Source: a virus
DNA: 13,693 nucleotides
Virus genome (UHGV): UHGV-0482402
Reading direction: 5' to 3' (one strand)
Part shown: positions 953 through 6,430 of the stretch, in pieces
Layout of the letters: each line of letters starts with the position of its first letter
How positions within the stretch are numbered: the first letter of the stretch is position 1
Program-made: the position numbers and the translations under genes
Notes under the pieces: model-generated
Databases searched by the model: none
What the model saw: only the letters and a program-made list of their open reading frames with translations
Told to the model about the DNA's origin: nothing

Positions 953-1189
953 ATGGGCAATGTGATTCAACTGGCTCCCAATGAATGGGTTTGTGAAAGC
1001 GTTCTTATCGCAATTACCGGGCTCAAACCAGGCACAATTCTTCGGGCCCGGAAAGAATGCTGGATGGTTGGAAGAGAGTATATTCACGTATCACCAGACG
1101 GTAATCCAAAGCCTTCCAGTGAATGTATGTATAACAGAAAAGCAATAGATGCCTGGGTCGCCTCAATGAAAAACAAACAACCTAGGTGA
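953..1189 (+). CDS. xis: excisionase (Xis-like winged-helix DNA-binding protein)
   Basis: 78-aa basic protein immediately upstream of the integrase. It carries a ...KECWMVGREYIHVS... motif reminiscent of lambda Xis (..DGREYLFH..). GAGGT lies 5 nt before the ATG. Confidence 0.6.
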   Translation: MGNVIQLAPNEWVCESVLIAITGLKPGTILRARKECWMVGREYIHVSPDGNPKPSSECMYNRKAIDAWVASMKNKQPR

Positions 1190-1244: not shown

Positions 1245-2558
1245 ATGGATAAAGTCAAATATCCAACAGGCGTCGAAAACCACGGCGGCACATTACGCAT
1301 CTGGTTTAATTTTAAAGGTAAACGTGTCAGGGAAAATCTTGGTGTCCCTGACACTGCCAAGAACAGGAAGATCGCCGGGGAACTGCGGACATCAGTATGT
1401 TTTGCCATCCGCACAGGAAGCTTTGATTATGCTGCACAGTTCCCTGACTCCCCCAACCTTCAGGCTTTTGGGGTAAGTAAAAAAGAAATTACGGTGAAGG
1501 AACTTGAAGAAAAGTGGCTGGATCTGAAACGAATGGAAATCTCTGCAAATGCATTCAATCGCTATGAATCCGTTGCAAGAACGATGGTTCCGAAAATTGG
1601 AGGCAGTAGACTGGTGTCATCGGTAACCAAAGAGGAATTGCTGTATATCAGGAAAGATTTGCTGACCGGGTATCAGAATTCAACGAAAAACAAAGCAGCA
1701 GCAAAAGGACGGAGCGTCGTTACTGTAAATTATTACATGACGACAATCGCTGGAATGTTTCAGTTTGCTGCAGATCACGGTTACTTAGAAGCAAATCCCT
1801 TCCAGGGAATTAAGCCTCTTAAAAGAGCCAGGGCAGAGCCAGATCCGCTAACTCGTGACGAATTTATTCGCCTGATAGATGCTTGCCGACATCAGCAGAC
1901 GAAAAACCTGTGGTCATTGGCTGTGTACACAGGAATGCGTCACGGTGAACTGGTCTCCCTGGCCTGGGAAGATATCGATCTGAAGGCAGGAACAATTACC
2001 ATCAGGCGCAATTATACGAAACTTGGTGAGTTCACTCTACCGAAAACTGAAGCAAGCACAAACAGGGTTGTGCACCTTATCCAGCCCGCTATCAGTGTCC
2101 TGAAAAATCAGGCTGAAATGACAAGACTGGGTAAGCAGTACAACATCAAGGTGCAACTACGTGAATATGGACGTTCAGTGAACCATGAATGTACTTTCGT
2201 GTTTAACCCTCAAGTGGTTAGAAAAAGCGAACAGGTAGGTTTTGTCTACAAAGTCGATTCTGTAGGTGACTCATGGGAAACAGCCATTAAGCGTGCAGGG
2301 ATCAGGCATCGAAAGGCATACCAGTCACGACACACTTATGCGTGCTGGTCATTATCTGCCGGAGCAAACCCAAGCTTCATTGCCAGCCAGATGGGCCATG
2401 CAAGTGCCCAGATGGTATTCAATGTATACGGAGCATGGATGACTGACAGCAATGCAGAACAGATCGCAATGCTGAATCAGAAGCTGACAGATTATGTCCC
2501 AATGATGCCCCATAGTCACCAAAGTGACACCAGAGGCTTATTAAAATCAGTAAGTTAA
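1245..2558 (+). CDS. int: tyrosine site-specific integrase (lambda Int family, with N-terminal arm-binding domain)
   Basis: 437 aa. The N-terminus (YPTGVENHGGTLRIWFNFKGKRVRENLG) looks like an arm-type DNA-binding domain. The C-terminus has the catalytic signature region ...RHRKAYQSRHTYACW...HASAQMVFNVYGAW (R, H-x-x-R and a C-terminal Tyr). GGAGGT lies 4 nt before the ATG. Confidence 0.9.
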   Translation: MDKVKYPTGVENHGGTLRIWFNFKGKRVRENLGVPDTAKNRKIAGELRTSVCFAIRTGSFDYAAQFPDSPNLQAFGVSKKEITVKELEEKWLDLKRMEISANAFNRYESVARTMVPKIGGSRLVSSVTKEELLYIRKDLLTGYQNSTKNKAAAKGRSVVTVNYYMTTIAGMFQFAADHGYLEANPFQGIKPLKRARAEPDPLTRDEFIRLIDACRHQQTKNLWSLAVYTGMRHGELVSLAWEDIDLKAGTITIRRNYTKLGEFTLPKTEASTNRVVHLIQPAISVLKNQAEMTRLGKQYNIKVQLREYGRSVNHECTFVFNPQVVRKSEQVGFVYKVDSVGDSWETAIKRAGIRHRKAYQSRHTYACWSLSAGANPSFIASQMGHASAQMVFNVYGAWMTDSNAEQIAMLNQKLTDYVPMMPHSHQSDTRGLLKSVS

Positions 2559-2763
2559 TCCTTAATACCCGTCATGTTAACTGCGTGATACGGAATTTTT
2601 AAAAATCACTAAAGAACGCCCAAGAGCATGTGTTTTCTTTAGAAGAATCAAAGCGTTGCATTGCCATGTCATATAAAAATCGGCAAAGTTCATATGTAAC
2701 AAAGTGTCCCAATCATGCCCCAAAATGCCCCACAACAAATATTTTTGCCCCATGCATGCCCCA
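2495..2763 (+). repeat. putative attP region: five direct copies of TGCCCCA, including an 18-bp near-perfect direct repeat (putative Int arm-type sites)
   Basis: TGTCCCAATGATGCCCCA at 2495-2512 (inside the int 3' end) and TGTCCCAATCATGCCCCA at 2705-2722 match at 17 of 18 positions. Further TGCCCCA copies sit at 2726-2732, 2746-2752 and 2757-2763, all in the same orientation. The location immediately 3' of int is where lambdoid attP sits. Confidence 0.4.
2646..2658 (+). promoter_or_regulatory. candidate IHF binding site within the putative attP
   Basis: AATCAAAGCGTTG matches the IHF core consensus WATCAANNNNTTR at every specified position. A chance match is possible. Confidence 0.3.
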
Positions 2764-2783
2764 AAAAATCACTTTCCCTCACC

Positions 2784-2835
2784 TTGACACTGTTTATCCA
2801 TACAGTTAAAAATAATACTGTATACAAACACAGTG
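2784..2835 (+). promoter_or_regulatory. dinI promoter with two tandem LexA (SOS) boxes
   Basis: Consensus -35 TTGACA at 2784-2789. LexA-type CTGT-N8-ACAG boxes at 2790-2805 (CTGTTTATCCATACAG) and 2818-2833 (CTGTATACAAACACAG). An A/T-rich -10 candidate lies at 2807-2816. The Shine-Dalgarno AGAGGGA is at 2836-2842 and the dinI ATG at 2849. Confidence 0.6.
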
Positions 2836-2848
2836 TAGAGGGACTTTT

Positions 2849-3097
2849 ATGCGTATTGAGATCTGCATAGCCAAAGAAAAAATGACTAAAATGCCAACCG
2901 GTGCTGTGGATGCGTTAAAGGAAGAATTAACTCGGCGCATCAGTAAGCGTTATGACGATGTAGAAGTGATCGTAAAAGCCACCAGCAATGATGGGCTTTC
3001 TGTTACACGCACAGCAGATAAGGATTCTGCAAAAACATTTGTTCAGGAGACTCTGAAAGATACCTGGGAGTCTGCTGACGAGTGGTTTGTTCACTAA
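2849..3097 (+). CDS. dinI: DinI-family protein (RecA co-protease modulator)
   Basis: The 82-aa translation [37 protein letters not shown]...[16 protein letters not shown] aligns along its length with E. coli DinI as recalled (MRIEVTIAK...ETWESADDWFVSE). LexA boxes lie upstream. Confidence 0.85.
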
Positions 3098-3165
3098 TAA
3101 ACACGTAAAATCGGTAACGGCTGGAAATCATTCAATACTCGCACTATCGAAAGTTAACCAGCCAA

Positions 3166-3203
3166 CCGCAGTATCCTGTCATGACAAGTTACTGCGGCTT
3201 TTT
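3166..3203 (+). terminator. rho-independent terminator downstream of dinI
   Basis: Inverted repeat CCGCAGTA (3166-3173) and TACTGCGG (3190-3197), followed by CTTTTTACTTTTT. Confidence 0.45.
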
Positions 3204-3214
3204 ACTTTTTATAT

Positions 3215-3502
3215 TTAACGGATCAACATCCAGATCAGCAGACACGCCACCACCGGCACAGCAAAATCCATCAGGCTTGCCACATCCCACGCGCGTGGAT
3301 CAAAACCGCCCCACCACGGCATGTTAATCCGCTTGCCATGCCCGAACATTTCAATCCAGCGATATTCTGCCTGGGTGTGTTCCCGCGCAATGAAGAACGT
3401 ACAACCGGCTATCGCACCGTAAGCCCAGTTTCCGGTAAAAAGACCACCCAGTACCTGTGCGACCACAGCGCAAAGTGCGTGATGAATTGGGGTTTTATCC
3501 AT
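3215..3502 (-). CDS. small integral membrane protein (95 aa), translationally coupled to the tailspike gene; function unknown
   Basis: ATG at 3502-3500 directly abuts the tailspike stop (minus strand reads TAG-ATG). Hydrophobic segments are AVVAQVLGGLFTGNWAYGAIAGCTFFIA and LMDFAVPVVACLLIWMLI. It sits where P22 and Sf6 carry O-antigen conversion genes, between tailspike and att. Confidence 0.6.
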   Translation of the reverse strand: MDKTPIHHALCAVVAQVLGGLFTGNWAYGAIAGCTFFIAREHTQAEYRWIEMFGHGKRINMPWWGGFDPRAWDVASLMDFAVPVVACLLIWMLIR

Positions 3503-6088
3503 CTACTCTATCTCTTTTGCTTTTTTAATTATCAATTCAAGCTCTGTTAAACGAGATTCAATACGTTCACACCTTCTTCGCTGGAATGCAGCCTCCAACC
3601 ACAAACATTCATCTGGACGCAATCCCCAACGCTCACCAGCATGTACAACCAGTTCCGTGTCACCAGTATCGTATTCTTCAAAGTATTCGTGAACGATGTC
3701 TTCTCCTTCAGGGGATTTAGCTATAAATGACACCTTGCGCTGTGCCATTACAGGTTGGTACTCATCATCCCATTTATCATGACATAGCAAGCCAAATCTT
3801 GTTCCATCTATCCCCTTTGCAAGAAACGCATCTCTTACCTGCTGTGCAATTGCTCCGAAATGCCAACGAGCAGTATCCGAACCTTTAGCCTTAATATCGG
3901 ACAACCACTGGTAAACGATAATATTTACGTCACCCCATGCGTCAAGAATTGCATCCTGATCCACCTCCATGATTTCTGAAAGTTGCTCTACTGTCAGTGG
4001 CTTTGTTTTCAATGTCTGGTCTGAAGTATTTATTGCCCCATTAGTTGCATATACTTGCGTCCACCGTTTAGATGATGTCCCACATGATGACGTATTATCT
4101 TTATTAGCACTTATATAGCCATTAACCTCCGCTGACTGACCGATATACGAATATGAAGATGTTGATAAGGGAGATTTAAATATCCATTGAGCATTGGTAA
4201 AGTCATAAATACCGGTATCACCTTTTTCACTAACATGAAAAGTTACATTCCGTAACGTATTCTTTGCATCATAACGGGCGGCTTGTGTTGTTGCCCTCGA
4301 AACAGTGAATCCTTTGTCATCAAGGTTTGCCTGCTCTATGACTTCACCACCAGGCATAATTTTACCAAGGCTTAACAAACCAGAGTTAGTGACAATATCA
4401 TGGGTTGAATCAATGATAATACCAGGCTGATTTCTTGATGTTGTTTTTACATGCATTACCTGTTGTGGCATTAATGTGTAAAATGTAGTTTCTCGCCCAC
4501 TATCACCATCTGGTATGCCATTTGTATTCCCCATTACAAGGTCATACCCACCTGCAATCATACGGAAAAACATTGCTTCTGGTTCATATGTAAGATTGCT
4601 AACATCTGGCGTTCCGGTATCATTTGGATCTGCTATTTCATAGGCTCTTCCTGCACCTGCCTGTATTTGCTGCACCCCAAGATAAACACCATCAAGTGTG
4701 TACTGATGCAAATATTTTCTGGTTGAAGAATATGCAGATCCAGCCTGACAAAAATAAATAGCAGTACCGTCACACGCAACTGTTTGCATATCCCTCACAA
4801 AATCGGCAATTTCAAATTCAAAAGTTGCTTCATTACGATAATCGTAATTGTACGCCTGCGGGTTAATAAATTTGCTGGTATCAAATACTTTTACATAATA
4901 GCGAATTTGATCTGGTGTTGATGGGCTCTCACCAGGGCCAACATAACGTTTTGCTGTAGTAATCAGCCATCGACTCATAGGGTCGGTGCATAAAACATTT
5001 ACCTGATTCTCGTAACCATCTTCCCATATGAGAAAAAACTCTGGTTCAATTTCACCACCATCAGTAGGGGTGAATCTGGTGATATACTTTGCGCGATCCT
5101 CTCCTTTAGCTGTGCCAGCTAACCCCCATATCTGTAACTGGCCTCTTGTGTTACGAAAACCAACGCGCCCTATGGTTAAACCAAGACATTGATGTCCTAA
5201 TTCTCTACTACCTTTAGTCTCCCAAAGAGGAGTTAACTCTTCATTCCCAAACCAATTATAAGCAACAACTTTATTAACTTCATCACCAGAACTAACGCTG
5301 CCACTCACATTTACCAAGCAATAAAGAACACTGTCATAATAATCAAGAACAGCACCCTGTATGACAGTATTTTTAATTGTTGCCAGTCGCAACCCTGACT
5401 TAACATGATTAGGAGTAGAAGGTCTGAAACCTGTATACATCCCCTTTTTTATAGTTTGTATTCTTTTTTCAGTAAAATCAGCATCTGGCAGTAATCGATT
5501 CTCTGTGCGAAAATAGCCATTTATATACTTATTTCCATCAAAAACTTGATCTGTTATATATGTATTACCCCTTAGATCAACAATCCTTCCTGTGATTTGT
5601 TTTTCTAACTCTTGAAAAGATAATGTGTCATCGGTGATGCCATCACCTTTTGCTCCCCATCCGCGAGGGTCAGCGTCATCACGCCACCGAGACATCTGCA
5701 ATTCATGATATTTTTTAGCACCTTCCGGGTCTTCTAATTGTTGTCTTAATTGGTCTGGATCGTACTTAAGCACATTCGGAAAATAGAACTGCTGCGTACC
5801 ATATGCATCGTAAACAGCCATAGAATGGCCTTGCACGGTAACGAATTTGGAAATCTGTCCGTTGTATACCGGGTATCCAGCAGCATTGATAACGATTGGC
5901 TGTGGCACCTGAACATAAGTACCATCTTCTCGTTCCAGATATACTGGAATCTGGTTTTCTGGATTTACCGGATCTGTGTCAATCTTACCGATATAAATTT
6001 TTCCATTTGCTACGGTTTTAAAAGAGCTAGCCATTGTGAAGAGTTGCGATGGCATACCTATCACAACATTTGGGGTTATATCAGGCAT
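3503..6088 (-). CDS. tailspike protein: P22 gp9-type head-binding domain, central pectate-lyase-type beta-helix (putative polysaccharide depolymerase) and C-terminal S74-type intramolecular chaperone
   Basis: The N-terminus [50 protein letters not shown]...[13 protein letters not shown]...NVLKYDPDQ matches the recalled P22 tailspike N-terminus (MTDITANVVV...[27 protein letters not shown]...[13 protein letters not shown]...NVLKYDPDQ). [13 protein letters not shown] beta-helix signature follows. The C-terminal roughly 173 aa begin at NTSDQTLK (Ser codon at 4022-4024) and end in a coiled coil. The start is placed at the ATG at 6088 (AGGA 8 nt upstream), not at the track start 6181. Confidence 0.9.
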
Positions 6089-6430
6089 ATTAGTCATCCT
6101 GTTTGAAGATTTAGATATTGAAGAAAACGGAATGACTGCAGACAACGATGCAATTGTTTTGAAAAATAACCTTCTATTCATTTAAAAACCATGCAACATG
6201 AACAAAACGATTATTTTACAATACTCAAGAATCTTGATCAACAGGCATATTATTTATGCGCTTAATGCGTCACTTACAAAAATAAAAACAAGTAATACCT
6301 TTATTCCTATCGTCCATGATTTTTATTTTCAAACATTATTAAATAACAATTCCTATTTATAATATCTGTCATTTAATTTGCTCCAGATACAAGTAATCGC
6401 TGCAGCGTGGCTACGGTGAATTTTGGGCAT

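Follow-up and report, generated by a model that had tools for sequence, protein, structure and literature searches.

Genetic organization of the int-dinI region

We analyzed a 13,693-nucleotide stretch (13.7 kb, hereafter the window) of the viral genome UHGV-0482402, focusing on the sequence around the 3' end of its integrase gene. The gene order in this part of the window is xis, int, a 290-bp non-coding stretch and dinI, with a small reverse open reading frame (ORF) and a P22-type tailspike gene (3503-6181, minus strand) lying 3' of dinI. Positions 2495-2763, which reach from the last codons of int into the non-coding stretch, are very probably the phage attachment site (attP) of a P22-like temperate Escherichia coli phage, and the adjacent integrase (Int) would recombine this site with a bacterial attachment site (attB) in the host gene yecE. 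The coordinates of the genes and elements are collected in Table 1.

Int contains the Pfam domains Arm-DNA-bind_2 (PF12167; residues 7-70, E=1e-23) and Phage_integrase (PF00589; residues 202-395, E=3e-18), and its catalytic residues, identified by motif, are R232, R362-H363, H385 and Y395. The window Xis is 51% identical to the annotated xis product of VT2-Sakai. As a first-pass annotation of the window had pointed out, an 18-bp sequence at the int 3' end (TGTCCCAATGATGCCCCA, 2495-2512) recurs with one mismatch as TGTCCCAATCATGCCCCA at 2705-2722 (17/18 identical, 210 bp apart), and three more TGCCCCA heptamers follow the downstream copy within 45 bp, the last of them ending at 2763. There are thus seven TGYCCCA heptamers in total, every one on the plus strand. 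The window as a whole contains eight copies of TGCCCCA, five of which fall within 2506-2763; shuffling the bases yielded about 1.1 copies per window, and three or more copies within 70 bp did not occur in any of 2000 shuffles.

Table 1. Genes and sequence elements of the attP region in the window; elements are named after their proposed roles.
Feature	Position	Strand	Remarks
xis, excisionase (recombination directionality factor)	953..1189	+	Pfam DUF1233 putative excisionase, E=9.5e-33
int, heterobivalent tyrosine integrase, 437 amino acids	1245..2558	+	Last ~22 codons overlap the int-proximal attP arm
Int-proximal arm-type pair	TGTCCCA 2495-2501; TGCCCCA 2506-2512	+	11 bp start to start; -85/-74 from overlap centre
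Integration host factor (IHF)-like site AATCAGTAAGTTA	2545..2557	+	Perfect WATCARNNNNTTR match; between int-proximal pair and core
Putative left core-type half-site CCCGTCATG	2568..2576	+	Dyad symmetry; attB counterpart GCCCGCCACT
Overlap (crossover) TTAACTG	2577..2583	.	attP/attB/attL/attR alignment; yecE nucleotides 86-92
Putative right core-type half-site CGTGATACG	2584..2592	+	Dyad partner of 2568-2576; attB partner CGTGGAGGGC; weakest of the four half-sites
Conserved block AAGAACGCCCAAGAGCAT, candidate Xis or host-factor site	2612..2629	+	Int-distal arm
Perfect IHF consensus AATCAAAGCGTTG	2646..2658	+	Int-distal arm
Int-distal arm-type cluster, five heptamers	2705..2763	+	TGTCCCA 2705; TGCCCCA 2716, 2726, 2746, 2757; non-coding
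dinI module, right limit of attP	2784..3097	+	-35 TTGACA 2784-2789; dinI coding sequence (CDS) 2849-3097
LexA-type boxes (CTGT-N8-ACAG)	2790-2805, 2818-2833		Upstream of dinI; 0.14 expected by chance in window

Crossover interval and host target

In complete E. coli genomes, the interval 2400-3200 was never found in one piece. It is split between two prophage ends, and therefore the window has the free-phage (attP) arrangement; as a prophage, the element sits in yecE. Matches on the int side span 1245 to 2587 and are followed by the rest of yecE (DUF72), yecN, cmoA and cmoB. Matches on the dinI side begin at 2565 or 2577, just downstream of yecD, and are preceded by a truncated 5' fragment of the gene after yecD. 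Close int relatives are present in 328 of 5426 complete E. coli genomes, with yecE/DUF72 adjoining among all matches listed.

To locate the exchange, attP was aligned with both prophage-host junctions (attL and attR) of lysogen SW070919 and with the empty attB of MG1655. Exact identity between attP and attB extends over 11 bp (TTAACTGCGTG, 2577-2587) inside a looser 19/23 match at 2565-2587. Bases specific to one flank, at 2567, 2572, 2575 and 2576, have the host versions at the yecD-side junction and the phage versions at the int-side junction, so that host bases are kept up to 2576 in attL and phage bases are found there in attR. The attL and attR recovered from the same genomes are reciprocal hybrids of attP and attB. 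In lysogen E-1246, whose yecD-side junction is TTAACTGCgtgatacgg and int-side junction TTAACTGTgtggaggg, attL carries C at position 2584 and attR carries T, so this base goes with the right flank. To judge from these junctions, both strand exchanges must therefore be confined to the 7 bp TTAACTG at 2577-2583.

Several related elements agree with a 7-bp overlap: PPyecE_EH1910 has just TTAACTGC in common with attB, the VT2-Sakai record annotates a 7-bp att, and a relative at a secondary site shares just TTAACTG with it. In this last case (L070, IMGVR_UViG_2850796239_000011, ~3830-3850), a 95%-identical integrase lies at the junction TTAACTG|TTAATGAGGGC within a 93-kb contig, and the site is not yecE. 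The junction looks like the prophage-in-prophage secondary attB described previously (PMC8112680).

The attachment target is thus the protein-coding gene yecE. A tRNA-gene target was rejected, as ARAGORN found no tRNA gene in the window and the core corresponds to yecE sequence; the first-pass annotation had likewise considered a tRNA gene improbable. It had also placed the crossover core at about 2515-2700 and had proposed searching host genomes for the attB identity, and the exchange located by that search falls inside the predicted interval, between the two repeat groups.

It is worth noting that in lysogens the Prokaryotic Genome Annotation Pipeline annotates a DUF72 (yecE) CDS with its start inside the int 3' end (window 2540-2587; L003 4296-5066), and that the phage DNA left of the overlap, read in the yecE frame, encodes T-R-H-V-N-C-V compared with the native A-R-H-F-N-C-V. 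Together, these observations suggest that the int-side junction fuses a phage-encoded N-terminus to YecE residues 29 onward.

Putative arm-type heptamers: geometry and conservation

The attPs of three relatives, PPyecE_EH1910 (EH1910), YYZ-2008 and VT2-Sakai, were reconstructed from both ends of each prophage, and their cores and heptamer positions were compared with those of the window (Table 2). Heptamer offsets from the overlap centre are near-identical across the four attPs, which have three targets (yecE, yehV and wrbA). The distal arms of the relatives contain three or four heptamers, beginning at +122 to +126, with the second heptamer 11 bp after the first. Among three independent lineages, 25 of the 28 columns within heptamers are invariant, compared with 71 of 222 elsewhere (Fisher p=5e-9). 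The more distant PHB10, with an Int 44% identical, carries TGCCCCT twice, 11 bp apart, just past the int stop codon, and three more copies begin 208 bp later; relative to the window, the geometry is unchanged and the motif is altered in both arms.

Table 2. Core sequences and heptamer offsets from the overlap centre in four attPs.
attP	Target	Int identity to window Int	Core	Int-proximal offsets	Int-distal offsets
Window	yecE		GTCATG-TTAACTG-CGTGAT	-85, -74	+125, +136, +146, +166, +177
PPyecE_EH1910	yecE	76%	GTCACA-TTAACTG-CATGAC	-84, -73	+122, +133, +144
YYZ-2008	yehV side	72%	GTCACG-TTACGCG-CGTGAC	-84, -73	+122, +133, +144
VT2-Sakai	wrbA	67-68%	GACATG-TTGAAAC-CATGAA	-85, -74	+126, +137, +157, +168

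The family was then scanned with an alignment of five integrases against one genome per species, which gave 80 prophage loci (48-89% identity) in Citrobacter, Enterobacter, Klebsiella, Pantoea, Yersinia, Serratia, Providencia and other genera. In 77 of the 80 loci, a pair T[GT]YCCCN-N4-NRYCCCN begins exactly 68 nt past the catalytic Tyr codon, and in one more the distance is 56 nt. The pair falls within the C-terminal tail of Int, a variable part of the protein, and keeps a constant frame. Four-fold degenerate third positions within the heptamers are 92-100% fixed (Ala GCC, 63/63; Pro CCA, 70/76; Pro CCC, 75/75), as opposed to a mean major-base frequency of 0.46 (maximum 0.65) at twelve control positions of like degeneracy, taken from conserved codons in these sequences. 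Because synonymous positions are fixed in the heptamers and not in the controls, selection on the int-side pair acts at the DNA level; conservation for coding alone was rejected by this synonymous-site test.

No part of Int is better conserved than the arm-binding domain (residues 1-72), with 78-86% identity versus 60-69% for the core-binding region, which must track changing cores. Within this domain, a loop at residues ~11-15 (window 1275-1289) differs in every lineage with a different heptamer. The loop is ENHGG at most loci, where the heptamer is TGYCCCA; NHCG in Yersinia, Hafnia and Rahnella (TGCCCCG); KHNG in Serratia (T(T/G)CCCCC); EIRNN in PHB10 (TGCCCCT); and APNKN in L175, which has a non-CCCC repeat. 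This pattern is only suggestive, and on it the ENHGG loop may be regarded as a candidate specificity determinant for the arm heptamer. A search of the PDB by sequence for a solved arm-binding domain returned matches to the catalytic and core-binding regions only.

A scan of viral contigs for TGCCCCG pairs, meant to find the distal arm of the Yersinia-type lineage, returned mostly unrelated contigs. In some of these, TGCCCCG-N4-TGCCCCG pairs flank a 125-205-bp interval (L253 2355-2546, L186 1548-1770, L254 6079-6221), and in L253 the pairs come directly after a different tyrosine integrase. It is possible that G/C-rich TGCCCC(N) pairs at 11-bp spacing may serve as arm sites in other integrase lineages too.

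The heptamers travel with the PF12167-type integrase, not with the dinI module. In mEp460 the dinI module stands behind an unrelated Rci-like integrase and the heptamers are absent, and in VT2-Sakai the distal heptamers are present with no dinI alongside. A role for the heptamers as dinI regulatory elements was rejected on these two cases. Phages with unrelated integrases, such as mEp460, match the window only from 2783/2784 rightward, which marks a sharp mosaic boundary.

Putative core-type half-sites and accessory elements

The four cores in Table 2 share a CAYG-N7-CRTG dyad pattern around three different overlaps, and the dyad centre in the window is position 2580. The 6-9 bp flanking the overlap may thus be core-type half-sites, forming an imperfect inverted CATG...CGTG. 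The end of the left half-site, CAT(G/A), is found at +78 from heptamer 1 in about 70% of 76 relatives.

The IHF consensus WATCARNNNNTTR has four perfect matches in the window, two of which lie in the attP region (2545-2557 and 2646-2658). In 61 of 76 distinct relatives, the best consensus match occurs at the exact offset of the first of these, +50 from heptamer 1, and 61% of the relatives have at most one mismatch at this offset, compared with 3.8% of shuffled controls. The first-pass annotation had reported a perfect IHF consensus between the repeat groups, likely the one at 2646-2658. That match is present, but it is the site at 2545-2557, which went unmentioned, that is conserved in position among relatives.

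Other elements of the distal arm are also held at constant distance from the overlap. The block at 2612-2629 aligns with GAAGATCGTCCA(A/G)GAGC in the EH1910/YYZ-2008 and VT2-Sakai attPs, and an invariant CCATG at 2664-2668 is shared by attPs targeting yecE, yehV and wrbA. Xis is one candidate ligand of the 2612-2629 block because the Xis proteins of the related phages are homologous. In addition, a direct-repeat family centred on AAAAATCA, in which ATC follows an A-tract, has copies to the left and to the right of the core (2539-2553, 2598-2612, 2672-2686 and 2764-2773), and one copy overlaps the conserved IHF-like site.

A sib-like retroregulatory structure was sought downstream of int; the RNA fold of 2540-2700 had z=-0.62, and a scan of the sequence revealed no terminator-like site. 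Among known RNA families, positions 2300-3300 gave just one sub-threshold chance match.

The tailspike of the window phage combines a P22 head-binding domain with an endosialidase-type chaperone, and homology to the Mnt/Arc/Ant region is found further on. A near-identical int-attP-dinI module is joined, in E. coli genomes (L001/L002), to the lambda-like tail genes gpJ, Lom and side tail fibre. Since the same recombination module is found with P22-like and with lambda-like tail genes, it would seem to move between phage morphotypes.

Proposed mechanism and alternative explanations

Overall, the PF12167 Int and its surroundings show the features looked for in a lambda-type system: a recombinase with an arm domain, an attB identity, an overlap with inverted sites, arm repeats that differ from the core and are under selection, and an adjacent directionality factor. 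The lambda-type layout proposed in the first-pass annotation, with arm repeats flanking a core, is supported by the position of the crossover between the repeat groups, by the PF12167 domain and by the conserved offsets. We propose that strand exchange takes place in TTAACTG, between attP and attB inside yecE, with the core-binding and catalytic domains of Int occupying the imperfect inverted half-sites. The N-terminal arm-binding domain would use the TGYCCCA heptamers, two of them next to the int end and five towards dinI, and a host bending protein may act on the A-tract and IHF-like elements between arms and core, bringing the arms round towards the core. As in the lambda intasome, a single Int molecule might in this way contact one arm site and one core site at once, and Xis would redirect the same sites toward excision. 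The relationship among attP, attB, attL and attR, the 7-bp interval of exchange, and the selection on the heptamer DNA with its fixed geometry are shown by the sequences compared, and the pairing of each protein with its element in this scheme is inferred.

A number of points weigh against this interpretation. Because the related attPs share ancestry, part of the conservation in their geometry is due to inheritance. In the window phage both core-type half-sites are weak, and the right one fits the dyad poorly. The 2584 polymorphism, by which the right edge of the exchange was set, could in principle be a post-integration mutation in one clonal group. The perfect IHF consensus at 2646-2658 is not conserved in EH1910, YYZ-2008 or VT2-Sakai, and the covariation with the ENHGG loop, drawn from about four independent lineages, goes no further than suggestion.

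If the region is attP, the heptamers might nevertheless bind the excisionase or another accessory protein instead of the Int arm-binding domain. Xis is conserved among related phages, as the identity between the window and VT2-Sakai proteins indicates, and direct repeats at helical spacing are also typical of lambda Xis sites. The Xis sites of lambda are, however, confined to one arm, whereas the heptamers here flank the core on both sides. They are also invariant where the arm-binding domain is 78-86% identical and change where the ENHGG loop changes, and the separate block at 2612-2629 is available as an Xis candidate. We consider this explanation improbable.

Far less probable still is the possibility that the int-side copy is kept merely for the C-terminal tail of Int (..VPMMPH..), the downstream copies being unrelated dinI-promoter elements or chance occurrences. 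The pair is indeed part of the int ORF, and its frame is the same in nearly all relatives, yet its synonymous third positions are fixed well beyond the controls and the PHB10 pair lies past the int stop codon. The distal copies, which are non-coding, keep constant offsets, heptamers and dinI module each occur without the other (in VT2-Sakai and mEp460, respectively), and chance is excluded by the shuffles. It is equally hard to credit that the window represents a junction of prophage and host, or a chimeric assembly, rather than a true attP, as both halves run into phage genes (xis and int to the left, dinI and the P22-type tailspike to the right), neither yecD nor yecE sequence flanks the core, and the join is exactly reciprocal to attL and attR of the lysogens; the gene order also fits the P22-type map.

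Significance and comparison with known systems

The identification of 2495-2763 as attP provides a base-level map for a common class of E. coli prophages, with close int relatives in ~6% of complete E. coli genomes; more distant Int homologs carry Shiga-toxin (Stx) phages into yecE, yehV and wrbA. It would also define a minimal attP (~2490-2770) for yecE-targeting integration vectors. Beyond this site, we tentatively suggest that the TGYCCCA arm code and its fixed geometry might constitute an undescribed rule for the whole PF12167 (IntBPP-1) family of Enterobacterales phages, with the ENHGG loop as specificity determinant, although we regard such a rule as somewhat doubtful. Its parts, put forward with the same reserve, would be a heptamer pair 68 nt past the Tyr codon, overprinted on the Int C-terminal tail, and an IHF-like site 50 bp on. 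Equally tentatively, the overlap would start 82 bp after the first heptamer (centre 85 bp) and the distal cluster ~125 bp past the overlap centre. If the rule is true, sequence alone would suffice to predict attP and the precise crossover in prophages, those of Stx phages included, and annotators could use the fixed distance between arms and core to place prophage ends and crossovers exactly. It also offers a testable recognition code for a subgroup of integrases whose members have been classified but for which we found no biochemical study.

Among tyrosine integrases, the IntBPP-1 subgroup has been defined by its DUF3596/PF12167 arm-binding domain, and its members, termed putative integrases, are gamma- and betaproteobacterial phage integrases that include those of an Stx2a phage and Gifsy-2 (Smyshlyaev et al., 2021; PMC8138268). 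The window Int belongs to this subgroup; it has DUF3596/PF12167, and Y359 stands in place of the first catalytic-pentad His, a residue that subgroup members conserve weakly. A further criterion for the subgroup is an insertion of beta strands between beta2 and beta3 in the catalytic domain. That study classified the proteins, whereas DNA sites were not described in it. A literature search for arm-type sites of IntBPP-1/PF12167 integrases found none, but many subscription papers lay outside the search, so this absence is no proof.

It is established that lambdoid prophages, those of Stx phages included, integrate into yecE, a 21-bp att having been defined and circular attP junctions confirmed by polymerase chain reaction (Nakamura et al., 2021; PMC8112680). 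The yecE core is therefore already published, and that work defined the duplicated core only. The yecE prophages, for example PPyecE_EH1910 (LC567835), share with the window phage the target gene, the TTAACTG overlap, a homologous Int, the 18-bp TGTCCCA-N4-TGCCCCA unit in each arm and a dinI gene adjoining the distal one. PPyecE_EH1910 differs in its core flank (CACA/CATGACGCA as opposed to CATG/CGTGATACG) and in having three distal heptamers rather than five, and the Int tail is longer in the window phage, a P22-like podovirus. VT2-Sakai/933W-type phages (wrbA) and YYZ-2008 (yehV), whose integrases are 68-73% identical to the window Int, resemble this phage in their matching heptamer offsets, CAYG-N7-CRTG cores and conserved distal-arm block, but have other overlaps (TTGAAAC and TTACGCG, respectively) and other host targets.

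The closest general model is the attP (P-O-P') of lambda. In each system the integrase is a heterobivalent tyrosine recombinase whose arm-binding domain is N-terminal, and a 7-bp overlap lies between inverted core-type sites, with arm-type repeats to either side; moreover, int ends at or in the adjacent arm and xis lies upstream of int. The IHF-like site between the core and the int-proximal tandem arm sites is comparable to H' and P'1-P'3 of lambda. By contrast, the arm motif is TGYCCCA here and C/AAGTCACTAT in lambda, all copies point in one direction whereas P2 of lambda is inverted, and the sites number 2 + 5 instead of 2 + 3. The arm-binding domain belongs to another Pfam family (PF12167), the target lies within a protein-coding gene, and the site is ~270 bp long, with its distal cluster 125-180 bp from the core. 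The attP of the window is thus the lambda paradigm in another integrase family, and it changes no concept of how such sites are built.

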